NCBI GenBank assembly: GCA_964342815.1
Contig: CAYFHS010000001.1
Location: 279,107-343,106 of the forward strand
Origin: an uncultured archaeon
Lineage (GTDB): Archaea; Thermoplasmatota; Penumbrarchaeia; JASLWR01
Length of the DNA: 64,000 nt
Direction: 5' to 3'
In this document: positions 14,900 to 64,000 of the stretch, piece after piece
Layout of the letters: every line of letters begins with the position of its first letter
How positions within the stretch are numbered: position 1 is the first letter of the stretch
Program-made: the position numbers and the translations under genes
Notes under the pieces: model-generated
What the model saw: only the letters and a program-made list of their open reading frames with translations
Told to the model about the DNA's origin: nothing
Database searches by the model: none

Positions 14900-17560
14900 T
14901 TAACGTCTGACTGACCGTTTCTTTCTTTTGAGTCTTATGGCGCGTACTTTCCGCTGGACTTCGGCCGCATGTACTTTCTCCTCGTTTTCGCCCCCGCTCT
15001 CCTCAGGTGATTCCAATTCATTGGAACATTCTTTGGCATGTTTCCGTTTCTTTGCCACCACTATGAATACGAAGAGTATCACTATCAGCATGATCACTAT
15101 CCCAACGGCAACGTAACTCTCGAGGCTGGGGCCGCTTTCCTGATAGTTATCAAGGTTTTCTTCGCCTTCCAATCCCTCATTGCTCTCATCTTCCTCGTTT
15201 TCTTCTTCTAGGGCATTGTTCACGAGTTCACGGAAGGGTTCCAGGTCAACTTCGTAACTATTGTCATCCATGAATTCCTGAATTTTCATATCGATGGCTT
15301 TTTCACTGCTGCCAAGGTCCATGAATTCTCCTTCCTCGGGTAATGCCATAAAGTTGGGGTCGAAATTCTCGGTCATTAATTTGATTTCGATATGTGTTTC
15401 CTGAGGTACGGGTCGGTCCTTTGGGTTATTTTTATCCATTACCGGGAATATATTGAAATTTTCTCTATAGGTAAGATAACCCTCTGCCTCTACAACTACA
15501 GTATATTCACCAGCCGGTATCTTCAATTTGAAATGCCCTTCTCGGTCGGTTTTGCTTGCAAAAACTTTGTTACGGGGTATTTCATCCCTCTTCTCCCTTT
15601 CTCGTTCCTCCTTGTGACGTTCCTCCTCCTTTTCCCTTTCCTCCTTATGCCGCTCTTTTTCCCTTTCTTCTTCCTCCTTGTGACGTTCCTCCCCCTTTTC
15701 CCTTTCCTCCTTATGCCGCTCTTTTTCCCTTTCTTCTTCCTCCTTGTGACGCTCTTCTTCCTTTTCTTGTTCCTCCTTTTCCCTGTTCTCATCTTTGGAG
15801 TCGCCGTCACCTCTTCTTGGATCATCCTGATTGTCCTCGTCAGCATCTTCCCAATTTTCATCATCCCATTCCTCATTCTCCCATTCCTCGTCCTCCCAAT
15901 CCTCGTCGTCCCATTCCTCGTCGTCCCATTCCTCGTCCTCCCAATCCTCGTCGTCCCATTCCTCGTCTCTCCACCCCATTCCCATCATCTCGAGATACCT
16001 TTCCATGCCAGGCAGCGGCATATGGAAATCCCAAGGAACGAAGGAAGCCTTTATGGTAATCGATTCCGGATTTCCATCGCTGTTGCGGTCGATATATACA
16101 TAATGTAGATCGATCCTGCCATCGCCCTCGAAATCAGCTTTTAAAAGCATTATCTCTGGATTTTCATCACTGTTCTTATCAATGTATTTGAATTCAATAA
16201 ATGGTCGATGATCACGCTCCGGTTTAGGTTTTTCCATACCTTCCCTTCGGAAAAACCTTACTTCAACACCTGGTACGGGTTTACCGTCAACCGCACCTAC
16301 GACCTTGCCCGTGACCAGTACCATCTTGGGTTCGACATGCTGTTCAAACGGTTTTAAGATAAATTCCACAAATGCGGTCTCATCCACATCTACATGAACC
16401 TCTTGGTGAACTTCATGGAATCCTTTGGCAAAAGCGTGTAAAAAGACCAATCCGCAGGGTACCTTTTCGAATACAAAGTGACCTCTCTCATCGGTGACAG
16501 CCTTCGATTCAAATTCATTGTTGTTCAAAGCATCGGGTTCTCTTCCCTCCGTTTTGAGGTGCACGACGACACCATTCAACGGTTCATTCTTCATCCCGTT
16601 GATCACTTTCCCCTCGATTCTACCGAAACCCTCATTGTGATGATCTTCTCCAACCAATACCAGTTCTATCTTGAACTCTCGGTGATCAAAGATCGCGAAT
16701 TCTCCTTCAGCTTTTCCGTGCTCGGGTGCCTTTGCAAAAACCATGTAGTGCCCCCACGGTACAACAAGCTCAGCAATGTTGTCCTTTTCCGTCTCCGCCG
16801 CGTAAAGCTCACCAGATTCAATATTCAGCATTTCCACATGTCCATTAAAAACCCTGGCATCGGACCTGGGTGAAAGTAAAACGACTTTTACTTCCACCAT
16901 CTTGTCATGATGCTCGAGAGGTATCAATTCAAACTTAATTTCGAACTGCTCCATATCCAAAAGATCAATTTTCATGTGACCGGGCTCATGGCCTTCCGAA
17001 TGAACTTTAATTTCATAAAAACCCTGGGGAACCGTGATCATTATGGGCTCGCCAGGTGGCGAATGACCCCTGTAAGCTTCCCCGGTTTCCGTGTTCATCA
17101 TTTCCGCTTCTGCTCGAACATGATCACCATTTGCAGAGATCGGCCATATCGAAACAACAACCTCCTTTACTGGTTTTTCTACAGGAACCAGAGAAGCGCT
17201 GATCCGATAGTTGGGTTCACCGCCAGTTGCATTTAACCTCTGTTTCATTTCCTCGTAACCTCTTTTCCAGATCCCCACCACCAGCATGGTTGGCCGAATT
17301 TGAAACCTTATTGTTCCGTTTCTATTTGTGAGACCTTCCTGGTGCCAAACCAGAGTACCGTTATTATCAGTAGTTCCAACGGCTACCTTTGCTTGGGCCA
17401 ATGGTATATTTCCATGATTGTCAAAAACGTGTACTGTCAAATGGCTGCCTTCATCTCTCGTGGCCGTACCCCAAACGGGCATTAGAGTGGTAATGGCTGC
17501 CGTAATCAGGATAAACAATGCTAGAAACGATATGCTTTTTCTCATGATACTTCGTGACAT
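14900..17560 (-). CDS. Membrane-anchored surface protein (886 aa) with carboxypeptidase-regulatory-like beta-sandwich repeats and low-complexity acidic/charged tracts
   Basis: Signal peptide; G.IEG.V........L.GV.V and TD..GHF.F..VP.G...L.A.AKGF patterns; WDDED/WEDEE and RHKEEEEREKE tracts; C-terminal TM YVAVGIVIMLIVILFVFIVV. Confidence 0.8.
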   Translation of the reverse strand: MSRSIMRKSISFLALFILITAAITTLMPVWGTATRDEGSHLTVHVFDNHGNIPLAQAKVAVGTTDNNGTLVWHQEGLTNRNGTIRFQIRPTMLVVGIWKRGYEEMKQRLNATGGEPNYRISASLVPVEKPVKEVVVSIWPISANGDHVRAEAEMMNTETGEAYRGHSPPGEPIMITVPQGFYEIKVHSEGHEPGHMKIDLLDMEQFEIKFELIPLEHHDKMVEVKVVLLSPRSDARVFNGHVEMLNIESGELYAAETEKDNIAELVVPWGHYMVFAKAPEHGKAEGEFAIFDHREFKIELVLVGEDHHNEGFGRIEGKVINGMKNEPLNGVVVHLKTEGREPDALNNNEFESKAVTDERGHFVFEKVPCGLVFLHAFAKGFHEVHQEVHVDVDETAFVEFILKPFEQHVEPKMVLVTGKVVGAVDGKPVPGVEVRFFRREGMEKPKPERDHRPFIEFKYIDKNSDENPEIMLLKADFEGDGRIDLHYVYIDRNSDGNPESITIKASFVPWDFHMPLPGMERYLEMMGMGWRDEEWDDEDWEDEEWDDEEWDDEDWEDEEWENEEWDDENWEDADEDNQDDPRRGDGDSKDENREKEEQEKEEERHKEEEEREKERHKEEREKGEERHKEEEEREKERHKEEREKEEERHKEEREREKRDEIPRNKVFASKTDREGHFKLKIPAGEYTVVVEAEGYLTYRENFNIFPVMDKNNPKDRPVPQETHIEIKLMTENFDPNFMALPEEGEFMDLGSSEKAIDMKIQEFMDDNSYEVDLEPFRELVNNALEEENEEDESNEGLEGEENLDNYQESGPSLESYVAVGIVIMLIVILFVFIVVAKKRKHAKECSNELESPEESGGENEEKVHAAEVQRKVRAIRLKRKKRSVRR
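15585..15975 (-). repeat. Intragenic coding repeats: 63-bp (21-aa) RHKEEEEREKERHKEEREKxEE units and 15-bp (5-aa) W-D/E-D/E-E-D/E units
   Basis: ccttgtgacgttcctc...ttatgccgctctttttccctttc is repeated about 63 bp apart; cccattcctcgtcgt/ccaatcctcgtcgt recurs with 15-bp period. Confidence 0.9.
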
Positions 17561-17696
17561 GTTACACCATCCTTAAAGTTTCATTACTTTTCAGATCGAT
17601 AGAGTTTTTTGATCAATTCGATATATAATCTGTTCCATTCTATATAAAGAATAGCGGTATATATGCAAAAAATATATCATTTATTGAAATGTGGGA

Positions 17697-18045
17697 TCCG
17701 TCTTCACTTGACAAGACGGAGGCTACTGGCCCTTCTTGGCATGTTAGAAGTGCCAGTATGGTACGTCTTTACTTGTAAAGTCAGGAACATTTGGACTGAC
17801 TTCTTGGTAAAGGTGTCCCGTACCGGGCCCTATTACTTGTTCAGCCAAGCCCATAGGTCTTGGCTTCTCAAGTACGATGTGCCAGAATGGGTCGGCTTTT
17901 CACGTAAAGCCAGGAACATTTGGACTGTCTTCTTGGTAAAGTTGAACCAGAATGGGACGGCTTTACACGTAAAGTCAGGCACATTTGGACTGACTTCTTG
18001 GTAAAGTTGAACCAGAATGGGACGGCTTTACACGACAAGTCACCA
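17697..18045 (+). repeat. Degenerate tandem array of about 5.5 x 65-bp palindrome-rich units
   Basis: Hairpin G(G/T)CTTTAC-NN-GTAAAG(T/C)C or variants at 17700, 17765, about 17830, 17894, 17959 and 18024. The units at 17904 and 17969 differ at only 3 of 65 positions. Confidence 0.9.
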
Positions 18046-18062
18046 CCTGTCCTGTGCGGTGA

Positions 18063-18322
18063 GTCCACTGCGTTCCGATGCCCGCGTTGCTTCGGTGAAT
18101 AGAAATTCACCTGCCTCCTCGGCCAACTAACTGTTGGCCGGGACCGAAACGTTCCCAAAAGGAATGTTTCCAGTATCGGAACATTACCCCCAGGATGCAT
18201 TGGAAATGCATCTTCTCTCGTAGCTTTGCTTTGCGAGGGTGTAGCAGAGCCCAGGGGGTCTGCATAGCAAAGCGGACACCCTCAGGAGCAAGCTCCTTAC
18301 GGGAGCCGCTAGGGTCACCTTC
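18063..18322 (+). ncRNA. Dispersed structured element, copy 1 (candidate ncRNA or non-autonomous mobile element)
   Basis: Reverse-complement homology to 63857-64000 (about 88% over about 130 bp by manual alignment, with a 43-bp identical core) and multiple hairpins. Confidence 0.65.
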
Positions 18323-18528
18323 ACCACACAATGAAAGCAAAACCGCATAATTATTATGTGATTTTAAAGAGATTATTTGGAACAATCGTCAGGGAGGGAA
18401 TAAAATTTGTCGGCAAGCCTGCGGCTGCTTATAATTATGATTTTAATACCGCATATATCATCGGCTGAAAATTATTATTCAATTACTTTTAAATATTTCA
18501 AAGGCCTTCTGGGGGTTTGGTGGAATTT

Positions 18529-18936
18529 ATGGACCATGTAGCTGAATATAATAGAAATCCTTTAAGTAAGATGGTCACAGGCACCAGGAAGGCTGCCGTA
18601 CATTTTCTTAAAAAAATGGAACCGCCCTTCGAGAGTATAGGTGAGGATGATACGCTATACATGACCACGAGGGATGGAATAACCATTGCGAAGGCCGAGG
18701 TTGAAAAGGTTGAGAACTTCAAGGATTTGGACCCCGAGAAGGCGAAACAGATTATCACCGAGCATAAGGATGAGATTTCGCCAACACAGATCATGCTCGA
18801 AAGAGATATTTACAGAAAGTATCTTACCATCATATGGTTAAAGAACCTTCAGGAGATGGCCCCTTTTACAATATCTCCGAAATATAAACACCAGCATTGG
18901 GTATCAGTGGAAGATATAAACAAAATACGACGTTAA
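18529..18936 (+). CDS. ASCH/PUA-like domain protein
   Basis: MDHVA...L.K..TG.R....F.K...PF..I...D.LY......IAKAEVEKVENF resembles the ASCH core; MDHVA (18529) is preferred over the tracked start at 18517. Confidence 0.6.
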   Translation: MDHVAEYNRNPLSKMVTGTRKAAVHFLKKMEPPFESIGEDDTLYMTTRDGITIAKAEVEKVENFKDLDPEKAKQIITEHKDEISPTQIMLERDIYRKYLTIIWLKNLQEMAPFTISPKYKHQHWVSVEDINKIRR

Positions 18937-18991
18937 TCCACAAATTGTTACAACCGGTATGCAAAAGAATTTTAAGACCTTGTAGTTTTTA

Positions 18992-19615
18992 TTATTTGCA
19001 CTGTATCAAATTAATCTTTTCGCATACCATTTTTTCTATATCAATCGGATCGGTTTTTATCTTTTCTGAGATTTGGATACCCGACATTGCCAGCAATTCG
19101 TCCCTTAATGGTTCATCGGAAACAATTTCTGGGCTTTTTTGAGGACCGGTTCCGGATATGATCCATTCTTCATTTAGTCCAAGACCGCGTATTAGTCTTC
19201 TCCCACCAGCTATTAGTGATTCTTTGTATCTTAGCTCGAAGTTTTTTCTGTAAGTGATAATGTTCTCCATGGAATAATCCCTTATCAATCCCTCCACTCC
19301 GGCCCGGGGTGATAGAAAGATTAGAAATCTTTTCGACCCTGTAGAAAGACCGAAATGATCCAAAGCGTCCTTGATCTGTCTTTGACCCGATAGCATTAAC
19401 AGGATTTCCAAAGTAAAGGTTCTAGCAAAATTTTCCCCATATGCAAAATTCTTTACGGCATTAATAAATGCAGTATCGAGATGCCTCCTTCCAAGGACTG
19501 ACCCATAGGTTAAACACTGTGTAAAAAGTCCCTCCTCCCTTCCTTTAATATCCAGTGCCGGTAGGAAAGAGGTCGTATCTAAGGAATCTCCACATACCGA
19601 ACTTAAAATATACAA
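18992..19615 (-). CDS. cgi121: KEOPS complex subunit Cgi121
   Basis: Q.L....V.G.RHL..A...A......G.N.A.T..LEILL..SGQRQI.DAL..FG matches Cgi121; a GAGGAAGTGAT SD-like sequence precedes the TTG start. Confidence 0.85.
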   Translation of the reverse strand: MYILSSVCGDSLDTTSFLPALDIKGREEGLFTQCLTYGSVLGRRHLDTAFINAVKNFAYGENFARTFTLEILLMLSGQRQIKDALDHFGLSTGSKRFLIFLSPRAGVEGLIRDYSMENIITYRKNFELRYKESLIAGGRRLIRGLGLNEEWIISGTGPQKSPEIVSDEPLRDELLAMSGIQISEKIKTDPIDIEKMVCEKINLIQCK

Positions 19616-19704: not shown

Positions 19705-22700
19705 TCATCCGAGTTTGTGTCCGCACCACAGGCAGAACATGGCTTTTTCGGGTACATCCTGTCCGCATTTCGGACATTTCCCCTCAGGAATCTCTTCCTC
19801 TTCCATTTCCTCCAGTGGTTTTTGGAAATAATCCCTTACGAACACCTCGTTATCGAGGGCGAATGCCACGTATTCCTGACTGCGCTCAATACCTGTTGTA
19901 ATCTTATCGAACATGGAAACGGCCATGGCCTTTCGTATGCTGTCCCGGGCGATCTCCCGGACCTTGTCATAGTCCTTGCTTTCAAGCATTTCTTCCACCG
20001 TGGAAAATATTTCCTGGGCTTCCGAAATGTCCACACCGTTACCGCTCAGCTCATCCAGCTTTGTTCTGACATTGTCCACAACTGCAGAGGCTGCTCTCAG
20101 TTCCTTCTGTTGAATTGCCATCAACTGGGCCTCTTCGGCATAATCAAGGCTATCTTGATATTTCCCCTCCTTGAAGGCCTTCATGGCTGACTTGTATTGT
20201 CCTGTTGGTTCCTTGACGTCCGCCTTAATGGCCTTTGCGGCTTCAATGACCGTTTTCGCAGCTCTCACGGCATCTCTAGCAATATTGGAGAGTTTGTCCA
20301 CCTTGTATCGATCTACATTTGCACCTATTGTAGCACAAATGTCGATGACCATCTGGTATTCTCGGTCCTCAAATGCCTCCGAAGCATCCATCAAGGTGGC
20401 GTTCATGTCGCTAACATCCATGCCGTCCCGCAGACCGTCCCTTATTATATCTCCAGCGTATGCCAGCACATTTGCTGCTTCGATGACCAGTGCAGCATGC
20501 TTTGATTTATCCCCCATTGCCCTGGCGCTTTTGTTCAGTTCCTCGCATTTTTCGAAATCGTTTTCTTTAAGTGCCTCTTCCGCTTCCTTAAGCAATACTT
20601 GGGGTCTGCTGATATCCACCTTATCGGACATCTCTTCAAGGTATTCCCTGGTTGCCTTGAGCTTTTCGGTCAAAAGACTGTGGTAATGCTTGGTATACCG
20701 GTCCTTCAATATCTCCTTTGCCTCTTTTGCAATGTATTGAGCTTCCGGAAATTTTTTCTTCGTTATCAGGGTTTCCACTGGCTGGAGTTTGACAACAATG
20801 TCGCTGGTATCAACTCCGAATTCTTCCAGGTCTTTCAAATATCTATTGCAGTCTTCCAGGATTGTCCCTACGGTTCCCTTCTTGAAATCGTCCCTGAACC
20901 TTGCAGCGATAACCTTTGCCTCCTTTGCAAGTTCAAAGGCCGCTGCAACCTCCTCTTCTTCCACATTTTGGGCAACTTGGGTAAGAACCTTCTCCAGCTC
21001 GGCAACATCTTTTCCCTTTACCTTCAGTTTTTCAGCCAATGCAGTTGCTACCTTTTGGTTCTTCTCGGTTTCGTCCTTCATGTAGGTGATCCTTGACTCC
21101 TTGGTTATCTCCTGGGCTTCATTGGAATGCTCAATGGCCAGCGGGTACTCCTTTTTTTCCAGTGCCGCCTTTGCCTTCGTGAACATTTCTTGAGCCTGTG
21201 AAACGTTGGCACCCAGGTTCTTCACCTCTAAAAGGAAATCGTGGGTTGCCAAGAGAGAATCGATAACATAGTGATAATACAGGCGATCTGCCTGAGAATG
21301 TGCCTCTTCCGCCAGATTCTCCACCGAATCGAAATCCTTTTCCTTCAATTTTTCAGTAGCCGAATTCAAAAGATCAGTGGAGCCCGTAAGATTCACTTTT
21401 CCACCGGTAACCTCTACAATCTCTGACAGGAAATCGGCCATCTCCTTTACCATATCCTGACATTTTAACTGCCGGAAATCCTCCCAGAGCGCGTCCCCGG
21501 TAACAAAAGCCCTCTCGATCACTTCTAATGACTCTCGGTAGCGGGAACTCTCGATCAGGACGGTCGCTTCCTCCAGAAGACTTCTTGCCTCCATAATATT
21601 ACAGCCCTCTTCCTCCATTGCCTCAAGCTTCTTCGATGCCTCGTCCCTCCTGCCGATGGCCTTATCCTTGAAATCCCCGGTAATCTTGGCGCCTATGGTT
21701 TCCCTTATGGCTCTCAATGAATCTATGGCATCGTAGAATTTCCCCTCATCCTTCAAAGCCGAAGCCGAGGCGATGGCTTCCTTTTCCGGCTGAATATCAA
21801 TCGAGAGATTTTTCGCCTCGCCCATACCAGTTCGTAGAAACGAGATCTCCTCCTTGATTATCTCTTTCAATTTGGCATCCAACAGCTCTTTCAATGGTAT
21901 CTTTGCATTATCGGATACCTCTCGGGCTTTTACGTAATCTTCCTGCTCGAAAAATCCGAGGCTCTCAGTCTGCATTTCGATTATTGGTCCGTGCTCTATC
22001 TCCAACCTGACAGCTTCATCCATCATTTCTTTGAGTTCGGTTGCGGAAACCGCGGCTTTCTCCTTTAAAAATTCCTTTTTGTTCTCGAGAGCCATATCCA
22101 TGGCCTTCAAAGCCTGTTCCTTTGACTTGTCGTAATTCTCCCTCTCGAAGGCCGTCTTTGATTTGAACAGAAGCGCCTGGGGACGCATGACATCCACACC
22201 AAGCTCTTCACATTCCTCGACGATTTCCAGAAAATCGCCGAATATATGTTTTATCTCATTAACCAGTTTATCCCTTTTCCCACCTTGGACCAAAATAATG
22301 ATTTCTTGGGAGGTCTCCATGGATTTATCATATTCGCTATTGGTGATAAGTTCCCCTGCTGTCACAATGAGTACTTCAATGGAAGCGGGGTCGGGGTAAA
22401 GTTCTTTAAATGGTTCGTAAATGTTTTTTGCTTTCTCTAGCTCAGCCAATGCGTTCTCCTTTCGTTTTGCATCGATCTTGGAACTAAACAGAGCTTCAAT
22501 TTCCTGAAAGACGACAATAGCTTCTTCGAACATATAATCGGTCATTCGTTCTGAGGCTTCATTTAAGAGTGTCTCCTCATTTCCAATATCGATCTCCAGC
22601 TCTATGGCTGATTGCTTAAGCACGTTGGTCTTTTCGGAATACGCCCGGGCTTCTTCAAATTTCTCCGTCTGACCTTTAATCTCCTCTTTCATCTCCTCAA

Positions 22701-24825
22701 AGACGCCCATCTTGTTCTGAGCTTCCTGGAGATTACCGGCTTCGAGAAGCACTTTTGCATCTTCGATCAGTTTTTTTACCTCTTCCTTGTGGGAATCGGC
22801 AAAATATTCTATAATCTCGAATCCGGCATAGAATTGAAATGCCGTGTCGATATCAGTAGCCAACACTTCGCTTAGATATTTTTGATTGATCTCCTCCAGC
22901 GTTTTCTTCGTACCCAGAAGTGTTAGACAACCTTTCACGAAATCCTGGGATTTGATGGACAATATCCCCTGTTTAAATGTATCTTTTGCCTTGCCCAGTT
23001 CAACTCCGGCGCTGTTAAGCGTGTTATAAAGTCCCTTTGTGGAACCCAGCAGTTGGCTTGCAAGCCTTCTTGCTTCAACGCTCTTTGCGTTATTGATCAT
23101 CTCGCTTAAGAGGGGTATGAATTCCTCTACTTTTTCAAAATCGTTGGCAACTATGTTCTCATTGATATTTCCCAGCATTTCCTCGCCTGGGCCAATCTCT
23201 AAACCGATCTCCTTGATGACCGTTATATCCGCTTCCATTTCATTAGCCTGCAGAGAGTATTTTTCGAAAAGGAAAGAATTTCTCTCATTCTCGATCCCAA
23301 GCGTAAACTCTCTTATGAGCGCTTCTATTTGGTCGAAGTTGTTTTCGTCCAGTAACTGCTTAATGTTATCAATTTGTTCATGCAGTTCTGGAAATTCTTT
23401 CCCCGTTAAGGTTTTTAGTGAATCCAAAGAACTATTGGCATCTTCAAGTTGTTGGGTGAATTTGTCCTTTAATTGTTTGTTAATCTTGACCGAAAGTGAG
23501 GTTTTTATTTCCATCAGATTATTGTAAGCCTCCTTGCGACGCTCTTCTTTTCGAAGTTCCTCCACCTTTTCGAGAGCGCTGACCTCCTCGGATATATCGG
23601 CTTCTAAAGATCTTGCTTTTTCCATGATCTCGGGAAGGGTCGAAAGTTCATTGGTGATTACTTCTGCCAATCTGTTTTTTATTTGCGGATTTAGTACCAA
23701 CGCGGCCTGTTCTGAGAATTCTTTGACCCTCACCACGAAATCCTCGATCTTTTTAAATTCTTTATTCTCAAGGCTGGCTTTGTATTTGTTGAACGGGTCT
23801 TCAAATATGCTGACATCGATCCCCACATCGCGTGCCTGGTTAATCAAGTCCCCGACACCTGTCAGAGAAAGCGAGGCATTTTCGAAGAAGTATTTTTCTT
23901 CCGCACTCTCAAGCATTTTCTTGACATTGTTCGTCAATTGGGCGCCTTTGATATATTCCTCCGATTTGATGGCCAGGATCGCTTCTTTGAATAATTCCTT
24001 CTCCTCTTCAAGAGCAAGGCCGTATCCTTTCACCTTTCCGAAAAGAGTTCTGGTGGTAGTTATCAGGTCCTTCGCAATATTTTTCATCCGTTCTCCCTTT
24101 GCCGCCGCCGCCAAGGCCGCTCGGATCATGGAGAGATCGGTGACCGGCGCGGCTGCTGGTGTTGAATCTGGTTCTTCCGCTGGTGCGGGCACGGTTTCAG
24201 CAGTTTCATCACTCTTCTCCGGAGATCCCTGGTCTTCTATTGCCGCGGGTTCCACAGGTGCAGACCCTTGGGGCTCCTCCGTTTCTTCTTCCTCTCCTGA
24301 TTCCGGTGTTGCTTCTGTTGCCGAGGATTCCACAGGTGCAGATCCTTGGGGCTCCTCCGTTTCCGGTGCCGTTTCTTCTTCCTCTCCTGATTCCGGTATT
24401 GCTTCTGTTGCCGTGGATTCCACGGGTGCAGATCCTTGGGGCTCCTCCGTTTCCGGTACAGTTTCTTTTTCCTCTTCTGATTCCGGTATTGTTTCTGTTG
24501 CTGTGGGTTCGGGGGGTGCTGACTCTACTGGACCCGTTTCCGGTAGAACTCCCTCTTCCTCCGGTGACTCTTGAAGGGGTTCTTCTGTTGTGGCTTCTAC
24601 CGATAACTCTTCTGTCTCAGTAACTGGTGCTTCATCAGGAAGTTCTTGTTTTGTCTGTGGTATCGGTGTTTCTTCCGGTGGGAGCTCAGCAGGTTCTTCC
24701 TGCGGAGGCTCTTGGTCCGGTTCCGCAATAGGTGCTGTCGACGGTGTAGCAACCCCTTTTTCCTCGGGTTCGCTCATCTCTTTTTCGTTGACACGATTAG
24801 TGTTCTCCAATTCTTCATCCCCCAT
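19705..24825 (-). CDS. Giant alpha-helical repeat protein (1706 aa) with acidic Pro-rich N-terminus and C-terminal zinc ribbon
   Basis: Recurrent roughly 55-65-aa units of the type G.D.S.A..LL..A...F....Y..A; C-terminal CPKCG...CLWCG; no signal peptide, TM helix or Walker motif seen. Confidence 0.85.
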   Translation of the reverse strand: MGDEELENTNRVNEKEMSEPEEKGVATPSTAPIAEPDQEPPQEEPAELPPEETPIPQTKQELPDEAPVTETEELSVEATTEEPLQESPEEEGVLPETGPVESAPPEPTATETIPESEEEKETVPETEEPQGSAPVESTATEAIPESGEEEETAPETEEPQGSAPVESSATEATPESGEEEETEEPQGSAPVEPAAIEDQGSPEKSDETAETVPAPAEEPDSTPAAAPVTDLSMIRAALAAAAKGERMKNIAKDLITTTRTLFGKVKGYGLALEEEKELFKEAILAIKSEEYIKGAQLTNNVKKMLESAEEKYFFENASLSLTGVGDLINQARDVGIDVSIFEDPFNKYKASLENKEFKKIEDFVVRVKEFSEQAALVLNPQIKNRLAEVITNELSTLPEIMEKARSLEADISEEVSALEKVEELRKEERRKEAYNNLMEIKTSLSVKINKQLKDKFTQQLEDANSSLDSLKTLTGKEFPELHEQIDNIKQLLDENNFDQIEALIREFTLGIENERNSFLFEKYSLQANEMEADITVIKEIGLEIGPGEEMLGNINENIVANDFEKVEEFIPLLSEMINNAKSVEARRLASQLLGSTKGLYNTLNSAGVELGKAKDTFKQGILSIKSQDFVKGCLTLLGTKKTLEEINQKYLSEVLATDIDTAFQFYAGFEIIEYFADSHKEEVKKLIEDAKVLLEAGNLQEAQNKMGVFEEMKEEIKGQTEKFEEARAYSEKTNVLKQSAIELEIDIGNEETLLNEASERMTDYMFEEAIVVFQEIEALFSSKIDAKRKENALAELEKAKNIYEPFKELYPDPASIEVLIVTAGELITNSEYDKSMETSQEIIILVQGGKRDKLVNEIKHIFGDFLEIVEECEELGVDVMRPQALLFKSKTAFERENYDKSKEQALKAMDMALENKKEFLKEKAAVSATELKEMMDEAVRLEIEHGPIIEMQTESLGFFEQEDYVKAREVSDNAKIPLKELLDAKLKEIIKEEISFLRTGMGEAKNLSIDIQPEKEAIASASALKDEGKFYDAIDSLRAIRETIGAKITGDFKDKAIGRRDEASKKLEAMEEEGCNIMEARSLLEEATVLIESSRYRESLEVIERAFVTGDALWEDFRQLKCQDMVKEMADFLSEIVEVTGGKVNLTGSTDLLNSATEKLKEKDFDSVENLAEEAHSQADRLYYHYVIDSLLATHDFLLEVKNLGANVSQAQEMFTKAKAALEKKEYPLAIEHSNEAQEITKESRITYMKDETEKNQKVATALAEKLKVKGKDVAELEKVLTQVAQNVEEEEVAAAFELAKEAKVIAARFRDDFKKGTVGTILEDCNRYLKDLEEFGVDTSDIVVKLQPVETLITKKKFPEAQYIAKEAKEILKDRYTKHYHSLLTEKLKATREYLEEMSDKVDISRPQVLLKEAEEALKENDFEKCEELNKSARAMGDKSKHAALVIEAANVLAYAGDIIRDGLRDGMDVSDMNATLMDASEAFEDREYQMVIDICATIGANVDRYKVDKLSNIARDAVRAAKTVIEAAKAIKADVKEPTGQYKSAMKAFKEGKYQDSLDYAEEAQLMAIQQKELRAASAVVDNVRTKLDELSGNGVDISEAQEIFSTVEEMLESKDYDKVREIARDSIRKAMAVSMFDKITTGIERSQEYVAFALDNEVFVRDYFQKPLEEMEEEEIPEGKCPKCGQDVPEKAMFCLWCGHKLG
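24245..24495 (-). repeat. Intragenic repeat encoding EEEET(AP)ETEEPQGSAPVES.ATEA.PES (about 3.5 copies)
   Basis: ccttggggctcctccgtttc...tgattccggt occurs three times in the DNA. Confidence 0.9.
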
Positions 24826-32849: not shown

Positions 32850-35369
32850 GTGTTTCGTGGTCACTATCGGTGTAGATCTATGGGACGAATAGAAAATGAG
32901 ACAGATCCTGAAATCGAAGGGGAGCTGGTCACGTTATCACCTGTAAATGATATTGAGGAATGTGCAGAGAACCAGGACACATTCCCTAATGAAGTTATTT
33001 TCAAAGACCTTCTGGCATTGACCGATACCCCTGAAGTAAAGAAAGTATCCGATGAAGAAGAGCGAAAACCGGATGTTCCACCTACGGAATGTTTGATCGA
33101 AAGAGAATCCATTGCTAAGGCTGGGGAAACCTCTGTAGTCTTAAAACCCCCCGTGAAGAGGAAAAAGAAACCTGTGGTAATAAGCGTTCTCAGAAAAACA
33201 AAGGTACGGGAGCCCGACAATGTCGGAAACGATGTAATACAGGGAGATAAGATAAATCAGCAGGAAAGGGATGTTCCGGATAATCGAAGTTTGAAATTAC
33301 TGGAGAACATTGAATTAAGAAACCGCGCTAGAAATAAAGCCGGCTCTCCTCACGAGATAGGATTTCGTCGCATGAAGATCCCCTCGGTAATATACAAGGA
33401 GAACGCATGGTTTCCCTATGAGGAAGAGAACGGTATTTTAACGTATATCGCCCTTGAAAAAGCAACACGTCGCTATCGAAAGAGATTGAGTTTTCTTGGA
33501 GTGCTAATGCTCCTTGTATCAATCATTTGCGTTGTATCAATAGCGGCAGTGGGCACTAGTCTCTATACTGCTTGGGACCTCTGGTTCCTGATGCTTTTTC
33601 CCCTTGGACTCTCACTTGGGGTGCTCATAATACTTTTTATCGTTAGATTGTCAGTCCGACCACACAGAATCATTTCACTGATGAAACATTATTACAGGGT
33701 TGATGTTCTGGCATTCACTGAATCCAGCGCCGTGATCTACGATTACCATGACTCTGTCAGCGATTTCAGTTTTCATTATTCCGATTTTCCTTTCAATGAT
33801 ATTCACAGACGATTGTGCGGAATAAACAAAACGCCCGTTTCCATACACGACGAGGAAAATGTTATATCCAGTCTTGCGAAATGCGCCGATATTTGGAACT
33901 CGAAAAAGAGGGAATTCTATGAAGTACCTGTTGCCACCGGGAACAGCCTCCTATATCGCTGTGTCGAAGCGCTTCTACCCTATTCCATAATTATTTCACA
34001 CAGCGATACCCTGAGAACGGTCCGGGAGATGACCCTTCCTGCGAGTTGGGATGAGGAAAAGTCGCGTACAATGAATCCCCAGTTTGTTCAGTTCTGCGGT
34101 CTTCGGGGCATAATAGATAATTTCAACAACCTGGTGGAGGAGATCGACAGGTCCATCTCGGTATACCATGAGCTGCTTTCGGGAAATATAAGTGCCACAA
34201 ATCATTATTACAGTGAATTCTCGCGTTTGGCCTCGAAGATGATGGGGATTTCTCAAATTGAAATTAATGATGAAGGGAATGTAAAGGGTTCGGGGGAAAA
34301 TGATATCGGACCCGTAGCGCCGCTAAGATCTCTCATTCGCAAATTCAGCGACGAAACGAAGGGAAAAAGGGAATGGATCGCCGAAGAATACGATGGGAAG
34401 ATAAATTACCTTCAAGACGAGATGGAAACCAAGATAGACAATGAACGGACGGAATTAAGTGGAAAGAGTTCCGAGATCGATTTTCAGATCAAAGAAATGG
34501 AATTGGAAACAGAAGGACTGCAAAAAGAGAAACTACGCATTGAACGATCTCAAAAAGACCGCGCGATCGAGATTTCCGAAGCTTCTGAAAATGGGAACCA
34601 GGACAATGAAATGGAGCGGTTGGAACTGGAAAGCGAGAGAGTACGGGACAAGCTTGACCAGAATGAGAAACTGCTGGCCCTTCTTACAGAACGGGCAAAA
34701 GAACTGGACGATGTTCTTACGGCAAAGATTTCAATGATAGAGAAAGTATACGCAGAGAAGAAGGATCACATCGAAAACGAGAAGAAAATGGAACTGACGG
34801 ATGTGGAAAAGGAAGTAAATGTGCTGAAAGGTCTGAGGGATGAAATAATGAAGATTGCCTTGAGCAGCAAAAAAGTTTTTTCTAACATGGAGGAAAAAGA
34901 GATACTGCCGTTTCAAGAACGATGGGAGGATATAAAGAAGATCCGAAATTATCTCGTTACCGCCATTGAGAACGATAAAAATGAGTTGGCTCAGGGAATA
35001 AAACCCACTGATGACCTGAAATTCACATACGACGGAGCCCTGCCACTCTCATTCCATATTCCTTTTTGGAGCATTCAGCTCAGCACGGGTGAGATCAGCG
35101 TGTTGCTCCCCATGTTGATGTGCGAGGATGTGGATGCAGGTCGAGAGATCCGGGACAACTGCGTCCCCTTGGAGAAAATATTTAAAAAGTTCTACCCTTC
35201 ACAGGCGGAATTCGAAGATTTTCTCGCAAAACGGGTGAGAACCGATAAGGATTATTTTCCGTCAAAGAAGCTCATGGCGTCCCCGGAAGAGATGAAAAAC
35301 TACTCTGGTGTATTTTTTACGGAAAGATTTCTGAAAATGGTAGAGAAAAAGGGGGGATACCTTTGGTGA
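32850..35369 (+). CDS. Membrane protein with two TM helices and a long C-terminal coiled coil (hypothetical; start may be 32880)
   Basis: Hydrophobic segments LSFLGVLMLLVSIICVVSIAAVG and LWFLMLFPLGLSLGVLIILFIV; E/K-rich heptad region at about aa 500-690. Confidence 0.7.
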   Translation: MFRGHYRCRSMGRIENETDPEIEGELVTLSPVNDIEECAENQDTFPNEVIFKDLLALTDTPEVKKVSDEEERKPDVPPTECLIERESIAKAGETSVVLKPPVKRKKKPVVISVLRKTKVREPDNVGNDVIQGDKINQQERDVPDNRSLKLLENIELRNRARNKAGSPHEIGFRRMKIPSVIYKENAWFPYEEENGILTYIALEKATRRYRKRLSFLGVLMLLVSIICVVSIAAVGTSLYTAWDLWFLMLFPLGLSLGVLIILFIVRLSVRPHRIISLMKHYYRVDVLAFTESSAVIYDYHDSVSDFSFHYSDFPFNDIHRRLCGINKTPVSIHDEENVISSLAKCADIWNSKKREFYEVPVATGNSLLYRCVEALLPYSIIISHSDTLRTVREMTLPASWDEEKSRTMNPQFVQFCGLRGIIDNFNNLVEEIDRSISVYHELLSGNISATNHYYSEFSRLASKMMGISQIEINDEGNVKGSGENDIGPVAPLRSLIRKFSDETKGKREWIAEEYDGKINYLQDEMETKIDNERTELSGKSSEIDFQIKEMELETEGLQKEKLRIERSQKDRAIEISEASENGNQDNEMERLELESERVRDKLDQNEKLLALLTERAKELDDVLTAKISMIEKVYAEKKDHIENEKKMELTDVEKEVNVLKGLRDEIMKIALSSKKVFSNMEEKEILPFQERWEDIKKIRNYLVTAIENDKNELAQGIKPTDDLKFTYDGALPLSFHIPFWSIQLSTGEISVLLPMLMCEDVDAGREIRDNCVPLEKIFKKFYPSQAEFEDFLAKRVRTDKDYFPSKKLMASPEEMKNYSGVFFTERFLKMVEKKGGYLW

Positions 35370-41500: not shown

Positions 41501-43130
41501 TGAGGTGTTCGTTTTTTCTATCGGCGCACTTGATAATATTAAGATTGATTCTGTTTTTGTCCGATACTCCTTTGATGTCGGAATGGATTTTAACCAAACG
41601 ATGTTTAGCACTGATTTGGAAAACTGGAGCTTGTCGATCTTGGTCCCGACCAACGCGACGTACTTAGAATATTCGTTCTTTATCAATGATACATCCGAAA
41701 ATTTCATAATTACTGAAATGCAAAACCGTACTGTTATTGACAATGACGATCCAATTGCCCTTGCTGGTGAGGATATCACAATTGATCAACATGAAAACAC
41801 ACTATTCAATGGTACTTTTAGTAGTGATAACGTAGCTATCATTAACTATACCTGGTCCTTTTTCTATAACGGAGAAAAGCTGATATATTATGGCAGTGAA
41901 GTTCCTATCACCTTTGATAGTGCTGGCGAAAATAATGTTACATTGAAAATTATTGACGAAGCAGGCAACTCGGATACCGATTACCTCATCGTTACAGTAC
42001 GGGATATCACTCCTCCGGTAGCAGAAGCTGGTGATGACTTTGTTATCGATCAGGGGCAATTGGTAAACTTCAATGGCAGTGGTTCCTATGACAACGTTTT
42101 ATTGGTTAATTATACCTGGACGATCATCTTTGGTAATGTCACACAAAGATTTTCCGGCTTGACCCCGAGCTTTACTTTCGATAAGCCTGGCATGTACCAT
42201 ATAAAATTAAATATCACAGATTCAGCGGGTAACTGGCATAGCGATCATCTCAATGTGACCGTCAGAGACAGCACTCCCCCGGTTGCACAAGCTGGTGAGG
42301 ATATTACAATCGAAGAGGGAGATACTGTTGTGCTAAACGGGACCGGAAGCAAGGATAATGTCGGCATCCTGACCTATACCTGGAGATTTATATACGATGG
42401 TGCCGAGAAAGAACTCAACGGCCCCTTGGCAAATTTCTCATTCTTAATTCCCGGTAATTACACGATCATTCTCACCGTGGAGGATGCCATGAGTAATATT
42501 GGGACTGATGTGGTCAAGGTGCAGGTAGAATCCACTGTGATTATAATACCTGATGATACTCCTGTTGAAAAAGAAAGCAGCTTCCCAATATGGGGCGTAA
42601 TTCTGATCGGACTCATTGTAATACTGATCATAATATTTTTAGTCGTTCTTATCCGTCTGAGGAATAAGAAGGAAGAAGCGGTTACTGAAGAAAAGGCGAA
42701 AGAATCTAACGTAAGTATTCCTGACGAGGAAACACCTATTGCCCGCCTGGATGAACCTGTGGATGTAACTGTAAAAACAGAGGAATTGAACCATTCCTCG
42801 GACCAATCTACAATTAATGAATCTGTTCCTCCAGTTGTTAGTTCAGATATCGCGTCGCCGATATGTCCAACATGCGGTCAGTTTTCCGTGTACTATCAGG
42901 AATACGAATGTTTCTGGTGTGATGGATGTCAGGACTATGTATCTTCTGAAGAAGAAAATCCAGGGGAAATTAATTATGAACCACGCCCACCTAGTGAAGA
43001 ATCACCCAAAGAGGAAATACCTTCAATTACTATCGAGAGCGATCCATCTTCACCCATGCCTAATGAACCCGAAGAAATAGTACCGGTAAGTGAAATTCTG
43101 GAATCTTCAGAAAATTCAGTTATTGATTGA
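38529..43130 (+). CDS. Surface adhesin (1533 aa): six FG-GAP (integrin-alpha-like) repeats, Ig-like repeats, three PKD domains, TM helix, zinc ribbon
   Basis: FG.SV..IGDLDGDG..DI.V.A..DDDGG...GAVWILF occurs six times; P.A.AG.D PKD motifs; TM IWGVILIGLIVILIIIFLVVLI; CPTC...CDGC. Likely start is 38547. Confidence 0.9.
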   Translation: MMAGLDMKRLTTMVVLIILLGTSSMITFYPDYNVMEVSLVVGDKKFPGIDAGKSNLNRNGEKIDAHIVKTHQKISDIEGGFNGTLDNQDYFGRSVSQIGDLDGDGITDIAACAYWDDDGGTNKGAVWILFMNRNGTVKSHQKISDTEGNFTGTLDIGDYWGESVTELGDLNGDGVLDIAVSAARDDDGGFNKGAVWILFLNINGTVKSHQKISDTEGGFTGTLDNEDFFGSSVSKIGDLDGDNITDIAVGAYFDDDEDFNVGAVWILFLNSNGTVKSHQKISQTEGGFNRGWMNGDLNALDWFGSSVSDIGDLNEDGILDIVVGVMRNDLFGIAAGHIWILFLNTDGTVKSHKKIPNFGEDLANELKAGDQFGCSVSDIGDLNGDGAIDILVGAFEDDDGGNDRGTVYVLFMNKDGTVKSHQKISDTGGNFKGILDNSDKFGTSVSGVGDLDGDGTLDIIVSAFEDDDGGQDRGCFWTFFLHDKPSFGTLWNSTLTTGDTERFSANVTDIIGGGLNEVWFNFTIDNDTALNWSVTNHTGNSWWVEMDIPNNATSFDYFFWVNNTDDVWAKTDKKTLKIFDNDEPSFGTLWQNELTTGDEEMFSVNVTDNMGVHSVLFDFKINGRSYKNWSVTNRTQDSWDITIVLPSNATIIEYRFRANDSSDNWGKVGNITRDVIDNDKPVFGKLWHNELTTGDVEMFSANITDNIDIHTVIFDFKINGTSHYNWTVTNNTENSWEISILIPFNALNFEYRFWANDSADNWGKTDNNTHIVIDNDKMMFGTLWHSPLTTGDPAVFSINVSDNIGLNEVWFNYILIDVEYNDHTFNLLVTNHTDVLSWKITIMIPPDATYIVYHFRATDMSDNGNETPIEASSILDNDLPVLGEDRSGEIPSTGDSYTFSLTVRDNIELANVSVWYKFDNESPFNVSMHNEGGLWIKTIDVPAKAFNLTYCFYIEDNTGNCLVVNKSMKKIHDNDLPRLQEDLITGIATTGEVFVFSIGALDNIKIDSVFVRYSFDVGMDFNQTMFSTDLENWSLSILVPTNATYLEYSFFINDTSENFIITEMQNRTVIDNDDPIALAGEDITIDQHENTLFNGTFSSDNVAIINYTWSFFYNGEKLIYYGSEVPITFDSAGENNVTLKIIDEAGNSDTDYLIVTVRDITPPVAEAGDDFVIDQGQLVNFNGSGSYDNVLLVNYTWTIIFGNVTQRFSGLTPSFTFDKPGMYHIKLNITDSAGNWHSDHLNVTVRDSTPPVAQAGEDITIEEGDTVVLNGTGSKDNVGILTYTWRFIYDGAEKELNGPLANFSFLIPGNYTIILTVEDAMSNIGTDVVKVQVESTVIIIPDDTPVEKESSFPIWGVILIGLIVILIIIFLVVLIRLRNKKEEAVTEEKAKESNVSIPDEETPIARLDEPVDVTVKTEELNHSSDQSTINESVPPVVSSDIASPICPTCGQFSVYYQEYECFWCDGCQDYVSSEEENPGEINYEPRPPSEESPKEEIPSITIESDPSSPMPNEPEEIVPVSEILESSENSVID

Positions 43131-63687: not shown

Positions 63688-63856
63688 TATCCATAATTAT
63701 AACTATTAAGGATCTGTCTAATGGACAGGCTAGGGAAAAGGATGTGTATACGTGGACCCCCCAGAGCTTATCAAAGTCAGTCCGGTTTGTTTTCTCCCAT
63801 TACCCAATAAAGATTATTCTCTAGAAAGAAATGTGCGGATAGTATGTCCCTACAGA

Positions 63857-64000
63857 GAAGGCGACCCTGATGGCTCCCGTAAGGAGCTTGCTCCTGAGGG
63901 TGTCCGCTTTGCTACGCAGACCCCCCCGGGCTCTGCCACACCCTAGCCAAGCATGGCTACGGGAGAAGATACATTTTCAATGCATCGGAACGCAGTGGAC
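63857..64000 (-). ncRNA. Dispersed structured element, copy 2 (truncated by the window end)
   Basis: Inverted homolog of 18063-18322 that lacks the 117-bp internal block. Confidence 0.65.

Follow-up and report, generated by a model that had tools for sequence, protein, structure and literature searches.

We found that positions 18032-18324 of the analysed DNA are probably a composite copy in a lineage-restricted family of non-autonomous, hairpin-rich DNA repeats, most likely mobilised in trans by a Y1 transposase. The analysed DNA, hereafter the window, covers 64,000 nucleotides (G000:C1:279107-343106) of a 4.35-Mb archaeal assembly (G000; 116 contigs, 45% G+C, 89% complete). The family, whose composite unit is here called B, was recognised by its copy number, its mosaic build, a folded architecture with covarying helices, presence/absence differences between sister genomes and a copy that lies in frame inside a gene. 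An earlier note on this DNA, made from the letters of the window, had offered two identities for the element, an undescribed ncRNA or a non-autonomous element family; these observations agree with the second.

The unit forms the end of a head-to-tail array on the plus strand (17708-18324), in which each module ends with CTTTAC or CTTCAC and the next one begins directly. The first module (17708-17772, 65 nt) is preceded by a CTTCAC site, ends with CTTTAC and has copies in the sister genome (DNA search, query 1-73). It is followed by a second shell unit of the 65-bp type (17773-17901), which carries a 69-nt passenger cassette (17813-17881) between its two arms, a spacing represented in 7 units of the genome, and then by shell units 3 and 4, both plain 65-bp units in head-to-tail order (17902-18031; TRF: period 65, 2.5 copies, 92% matches). 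B copy 1 occupies the remaining 293 nt (18032-18324) and is itself composite. Its 5' arm (18032-18076) comprises a hairpin and the 5' half of a closing helix, in which one compensated change separates the copies; a nested 117-nt cassette with GATGC on each side comes next (18077-18193), followed by a small hairpin X of 19 nt (18194-18212), the same 20-mer of which was found at 5 other loci, by a four-way junction (18213-18311) and by a 3' arm that ends with CTTCAC (18306-18324) and whose relation to that of the 65-bp units was seen in an alignment of 3' arms. The junction is predicted to leave zero unpaired bases at its centre and comprises a closing helix P1 (18215-18222 paired with 18298-18305), a P2 hairpin (18223-18234), a long P3 with an inner hairpin (18235-18283) and a P4 hairpin (18284-18297). 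The covariance model R1, described below, matched it with 93.3 bits (E 3.6e-21).

The 117-nt cassette was present neither in the second window copy nor in the other G000 copies; a 59-nt form of it was found in the sister-genome copies that were compared, and sub-parts of it recurred within other composite units. Direct repeats of 3-5 nt were found at the cassette boundaries in B, and the short B copies lacked P2 and P3, with CCC at each edge of the missing block. B itself encodes nothing, and the only long reading frame that runs across it is that of a host gene on contig C13.

The second window copy (63855-64000, minus strand) is without the nested cassette. The earlier note had treated it as complete, but the end of the window is also the end of contig C1 (343106 bases), so the copy is truncated, with its 5' arm missing; model R1 matched it at 63868-63967 (minus strand, 95.4 bits). 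The inverted similarity between the copies was real: 18254-18322 matched 63857-63925 over 69 nt at 93%, 18063-18081 matched 63982-64000 exactly over 19 nt, BLAST returned the reported 88% identity for 18194-18322 (164 bits, E about 1e-40), and the 43-bp identical run was seen in both copies. The extent of roughly 260 bp (18063-18322) had to be revised to 18032-18324, the length reflecting the cassette that copy 2 lacks. Differences that preserve pairing had also been reported; the stem changes are indeed there, but the P2 hairpin of copy 1 is degraded and not neatly compensated. As to the neighbours, the MATE gene beside copy 2 was confirmed, while the gene called ASCH exists as a 139-aa ORF (18517-18936, plus strand) but had no Pfam match at E 0.001. 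The gene after it (18992-19615, minus strand) matched CGI-121, a KEOPS subunit. In the sister genome, a tRNA gene lies downstream of MATE (G001:C44, about 20520-20600), where G000 has B copy 2 and the contig end. The window also holds a third mosaic hairpin locus of the same superfamily, located between a 2026-aa gene and a small ORF (about 7840-8290), in which we found a diverged four-way-junction unit (8056-8150, plus strand; R1 40.6 bits, E 7e-08).

The coverage of the window in a BLAST search against the genome differed strongly along the array: positions 17750-18040 were matched 25-80 times, 18190-18320 about 5-6 times and 18090-18180 about 2 times. We detected at least 8 B-type copies in G000 (long, short, arms-only and diverged), together with dozens more units that share parts of B; the claim that the element is present twice is thus true within the window only. 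The long copies are the two of the window, C20:10833-10984 and C66:304-437, and the short ones, which lack 61 nt, are C13:108083-108215 and C19:6008-6099. A diverged copy was found on C23 near 6430-6570, and 51-nt arms-only units were located approximately at C33 near 32950-33000 and C23 near 6380-6430. The sister genome of the same genus (G001) contained at least 6 B copies, and 9 stretches of marine metagenome contigs carried the conserved core of B. Among named public records, the core was recovered only in a Thermoplasmatota MAG from the eastern tropical North Pacific. By DNA search, B was present in 3 out of 41 relatives and in 3 out of 37 genomes of the class, all belonging to one family, and no match to the element emerged among viral contigs, phages and plasmids, searched by exact pattern and by BLAST. 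Long copies were 90-98% identical within G000, 91-97% within the sister genome and 86-90% between them, a pattern that fits amplification or homogenisation after the species split.

We examined the relation between B and the 65-bp units, which a genome-wide count showed to be the source of the most frequent 14-mers and the most abundant repeat in G000. The 65-bp arm family comprised 54 left and 73 right arms, and of the gaps between arms, 35 measured 5 nt, 7 measured 69 nt and 4 about 174 nt; since these sizes are fixed, cargo is placed at one fixed position. B and the 65-bp units have 3' arms that can be aligned and 5' arms that follow a common plan, and both end with CTTYAC; B therefore belongs to the same superfamily with a different cargo. 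The 51-nt arms-only form is this unit minus the cargo. The 65-bp units start with GTAAAG and finish with CTTTAC, a 6-nt inverted pair, and the arms of B are imperfectly complementary over about 10 nt, so the reported lack of terminal inverted repeats holds only roughly. Most of the 10 complete B copies had a T-rich pentamer ending with AC or AT upstream, and many of these follow another unit; orthologous sites without B, which are not cleanly empty and have diverged flanks, read TATTC, CGATC and TTTAC. The 65-bp units formed 47 arrays in G000, of which 45 were intergenic and 16 were located at contig ends. Their orientation relative to neighbouring genes was random (7, 7, 5 and 8 over four classes), some arrays contained units of mixed orientation, and in a hand tally along the contigs 8 adjacent pairs of arrays had the same orientation and 5 had different ones, a result that carries no information. 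The 14-mer counts also revealed three other repeat families in G000 (13-17 copies each), which are unrelated to B and may be CRISPR or further dispersed repeats.

The comparison of orthologous sites that the earlier note had suggested was carried out with the sister species and revealed presence/absence differences. The 679-bp interval 17692-18370 corresponds there to 57 bp, with both flanks kept (76-79% identity), including a TATA-like block left of the array. Conversely, 3 sister-species B copies were absent from the orthologous G000 sites (C9:112628-112638, C45:268-281 and C45:8832-8851), and a fourth orthologous site contained only a 51-nt arms-only unit with a different 5' hairpin. No target duplication was found at these 4 comparisons, where divergence blurs the junctions, in line with what had been noted from the window. 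Since the flanks have diverged (76-92% identity) and no junction is clean, gain and loss of copies are not separable.

The short copy on C13 contributes 126 nt, i.e. 42 codons, antisense and in frame, to a 956-aa acidic coiled-coil protein (residues 371-415), and the sister ortholog is without this stretch. The copy sits in a disordered acidic linker and was the one such in-gene copy seen in G000. The host gene (C13:106969-109836) is of the same general type as two acidic tandem-repeat proteins of the window: an 886-aa protein with CarboxypepD_reg domains and long acidic tandem repeats (14900-17560, minus strand) and a 1706-aa coiled-coil protein with long acidic tandem repeats and a zinc-ribbon-like motif at its end (19705-24825, minus strand). 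The sister ortholog of the host gene (G001:C116:14136-15650) has two in-frame TAA stops in a well-conserved stretch, which may indicate a pseudogene or an assembly error.

The four-way junction was analysed in two alignments. In the close set, which comprised 26 distinct junction copies, 92.6% of the cells were paired, against 83.7% after shuffling and 31-48% when the partners were slid, and 15 pairs changed on both sides; these were in P1, P2 and P4, with P3 almost invariant. The P3 core was nearly invariant even between genera whose coding DNA is only 66-72% identical, and in the sister genomes it was found in many further contexts, with unlike hairpins at the P2 and P4 positions. Model R1, the covariance model built from the close-set alignment, gave 36 matches in G000, 54 in G001 and 46 in G003 (three genomes of one family) and had no match in any of the 34 remaining genomes of the class, one of which is the fourth family member. 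For the wider set, 40 of the more distant R1 matches were fetched and realigned: 89% of the cells were paired and 29 out of 36 pairs changed on both sides, with pairs of P3 and its inner hairpin this time among them, so that all five helices of the junction covary. With one strand per locus, 88.4% were paired, against 36-51% when slid. As it was fitted to model R1, the wider-set alignment leans towards the structure, and many of its changes are whole-hairpin swaps between subfamilies, not stepwise substitutions.

We searched for an enzyme that could move the units. No Y1 transposase gene was found in the G000 assembly (89% complete), and a self-comparison of this genome for IS-sized repeats recovered diverged gene families only and no multi-copy IS. 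Both repeat-bearing relatives possessed Y1 genes (4 matches and 1 match, respectively), and the family member without repeats had none. These genes belong to multi-copy IS200-type elements that have ends of their own, and a single-copy RAYT gene with units on its flanks was not found. The first of these elements is 752 bp long (G001:C158:38946-39697 and G003:C1:8942-9692), is 82% identical between the two genera and, as it was found at many contig ends, is multi-copy in G001. Its Y1 gene lies at G001:C158:39095-39454. Its left junction follows TTTAC in 10 out of 10 cases and its right end is also TTTAC. An AT-rich stretch of G000 (C44:2208-2442) retains a degraded right end and a 3' coding remnant of it. 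The second element encodes a 160-aa TnpA, with the gene seen only at G001:C65:2976-3338, and is accompanied by PATE-like minis in G001. Two near-identical minis of this element, of about 150 nt and with both IS ends, were also found in G000 (C40, about 4950-5104; C36, about 42960-43117), and a Y1 enzyme therefore acted recently in this lineage.

The IS200-type elements of the sister genomes are thus a candidate source of the mobilising enzyme for the B units. The only feature in common between B and these elements was the terminal TTTAC motif: neither local alignment with shuffles nor an nhmmer profile with 40 shuffled sets placed the real comparison of IS200-type ends and B above the shuffled ones. 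A 12-mer common to the P4 hairpin and the IS ends was discounted, as hairpins carry little information, and inspection of the flanks revealed no consistent pattern of IS608-type complementarity between guide and flank.

A unit thus consists of a 5' hairpin arm and a 3' arm ending with CTTYAC, and the two arms can enclose passenger cassettes. The passengers of B are the small hairpin and the four-way junction of about 100 nt, to which copy 1 adds the 117-nt cassette nested between GATGC repeats. Units are placed head to tail behind CTTYAC-like sites, without target duplication. In the mechanism that we consider most likely, one strand would fold and be cut and joined at its CTTYAC ends by an IS200/IS605-type Y1 (HUH) transposase acting in trans, a route that has been proposed for PATEs and REPs. 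Nested insertion would add cassettes, and deletion between short direct repeats would remove them. Single-strand transposition of the IS608 kind agrees with the shared terminal motif, with the co-occurrence across genomes and with the stacking of units head to tail; which enzyme acts, that it acts on single strands and which way each gain or loss went are inferences. Several observations count against this explanation: the 65-bp units are abundant and similar in G000, where no Y1 gene was found, but were not recovered by DNA search from the sister species with active IS; the IS ends have no significant similarity to B; the 5' flanks of B are only loosely CTTYAC-like, with 2 out of 3 sites without the element reading differently; and the link across genomes is drawn from four related genomes only.

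A rival reading takes the units as host elements that need no transposase. They could be REP-like sequences, serving as protein-binding or DNA-structure sites, terminators or mRNA stabilisers, that spread and become homogenised by recombination, gene conversion and replication slippage. The failure to find a transposase in G000, the tandem head-to-tail arrays, the clustering of copies by genome and the 3-5-nt direct repeats at cassette boundaries would accord with this, as would one orthologous site at which the two species carry different arms and cargo, as from gene conversion. Slippage and conversion, however, leave unexplained the new copies at more than 40 unlinked sites and the copy inside a gene; in addition, the fixed terminal motif matches the target of the sister-genome IS200-type elements, and the PATE-like minis of such an element have moved recently in G000. 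Overall, we consider a transposase-free origin unlikely and prefer mobilisation in trans by a Y1 enzyme.

The ncRNA proposed in the earlier note was evaluated as a multi-copy structured RNA (regulatory, scaffold or guide) formed by B or by its four-way junction, with the DNA copies as its genes. The predicted folds were stronger than shuffled ones (z -3 to -6), all five helices covaried, with the P3 core near-invariant between genera, and the competing pairing described in the earlier note exists in the predictions, allowing two mutually exclusive folds. We also found a strand-specific feature, the hallmark of GTAG-tagged REPs: both the P2 hairpin and the inner hairpin of P3 have GTAG directly on their 5' side, with 50 occurrences of GTAG against 17 of its complement in 2724 nt (genome rate 1.9 per kb). 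Nevertheless, both strands fold about equally well (copy 1: -124.6 and -124.7 kcal/mol; z -6.0 and -4.9), and the wobble pairs of the close set favoured neither strand (30 G-U against 28 A-C); the ratio in the wider set was 141 to 93, but there the search itself had picked the strand. The related 65-bp arrays are randomly oriented, some of them mixed within one array, one B copy lies antisense and in frame inside a gene, and presence varies between orthologous sites. The suggested Rfam scan yielded chance-level matches only, both for the whole window at the gathering score and for 17500-18500 at E values up to 10; the confident match to a known IS end or Rfam family that would have refuted the earlier note's reading was not obtained. 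As to a guide RNA of the TnpB/IscB kind (omega RNA, HEARO), a search for TnpB (PF07282) found none in G000 and its three family relatives (G001, G002 and G003), and Rfam gave no match; a tRNA-like element was rejected after ARAGORN called no cloverleaf in 17000-19000. On balance, an RNA identity for B appears quite improbable, and the results point to mobile DNA.

A related reading, which we hold to be similarly doubtful, considers the junction of about 100 nt as a selected functional nucleic-acid module and not as mere cargo. It would be either a new structure by which some further enzyme recognises and moves the units, for instance a nuclease or recombinase that is specific for junctions and works on extruded cruciforms or on single strands after folding, or a new multi-copy structured RNA. 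Such a function would explain why five helices covary over 35-55 copies per genome and why the P3 core is near-invariant. Finally, an old segmental duplication that links the 18-kb and 64-kb positions, compatible with the two copies visible within the window, can be set aside, since the copy-number search recovered many more copies, both elsewhere in the assembly and in the sister species and metagenomes.

Much work has been done on small repeats without a transposase in bacteria (REP, BIME, MITE) and haloarchaea (PATE, SMR); in uncultured marine archaea they are barely described. In the present genome they break the assembly (the 16 out of 47 arrays at contig ends), come between promoters and genes and lengthen one protein by 42 residues. 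Annotation should mask such loci as repeats instead of calling RNA genes or small ORFs there. The question of how they are mobilised is directly testable, since the sister species offers candidate enzymes in two IS200-type elements with TTTAC specificity.

Among known systems, B comes closest to the transposase-free repeats of Haloquadratum walsbyi. The PATEs of this species carry palindromes near their ends and a terminal oligonucleotide and cause no target duplication, and 52-bp terminal-only forms of them arise via repeat-mediated deletion (PMC3119063). SMR-A repeats insert into PATE palindromes, and both PATEs and SMR-A move though all IS200-type genes are pseudogenes in one strain (PMC3119063). 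The B family resembles these repeats (PMC3119063) in being archaeal and in its unit length of 51-293 nt, too short for a transposase, as well as in its near-terminal palindromes, conserved terminal oligonucleotide and lack of target duplication. It shares with them terminal-only minis of about 52 bp, apparently derived from short-repeat deletion, small repeats nested in palindromes, and mobility in a strain where no intact IS200-type transposase was found. The arms of B are weakly inverted, as in SMRs, which makes it uncertain whether B agrees with PATEs in lacking terminal inverted repeats. PATE palindromes resemble those of co-resident IS605-type transposons, and no such similarity was found for B; its cargo includes a conserved, covarying four-way junction that is undescribed for PATEs, and its host is a marine Thermoplasmatota without TnpB partners. 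As its palindromes are not detectably related to those of any IS605-type transposon, B was not assigned to the PATEs.

The REPs are single hairpins of 20-40 bp, tagged with GTAG at one end and described in bacterial phyla only (PMC3733652). Like the REP, BIME and REPIN systems with their RAYT enzyme (PMC3733652), the units studied here are abundant, intergenic and palindromic, form mosaics and arrays, carry GTAG directly 5' of hairpins, occur occasionally inside genes and have a Y1-family enzyme as proposed mobiliser. Unlike REPs and BIMEs, they measure 51-300 nt with nested cargo, and no RAYT gene flanked by repeats was found; membership was rejected on unit size and on this missing gene. Given that neither the PATE nor the REP/BIME definition applied, we regard B as working like these families without being a member of them.

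IS608 inserts 3' of TTAC, without duplication, guided by subterminal hairpins (PMC3201880). Insertion 3' of a short fixed site (TTAC in IS608, TTTAC in the sister-genome IS) would be a further likeness of B to IS200/IS605 elements such as IS608, although its 5' flanks agree with such a site only loosely. B shares with them the lack of target duplication, hairpins close to the ends and a terminus similar to the target, which allows head-to-tail stacking. In contrast to IS608, B encodes nothing, no consistent complementarity between guide and site was seen, and hairpin recognition is putative. Rickettsia palindromic elements, as cited in PMC3733652 and PMC10969869, offer a parallel for a hairpin repeat that lies in frame in a gene without breaking it; B differs from them in having one in-gene copy in G000, within a disordered acidic linker, and in its unrelated sequence. 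What sets the B family apart is its unusual modular build, in which the arms are fixed, the folded cargo can be exchanged and this cargo includes a four-way junction whose helices covary.
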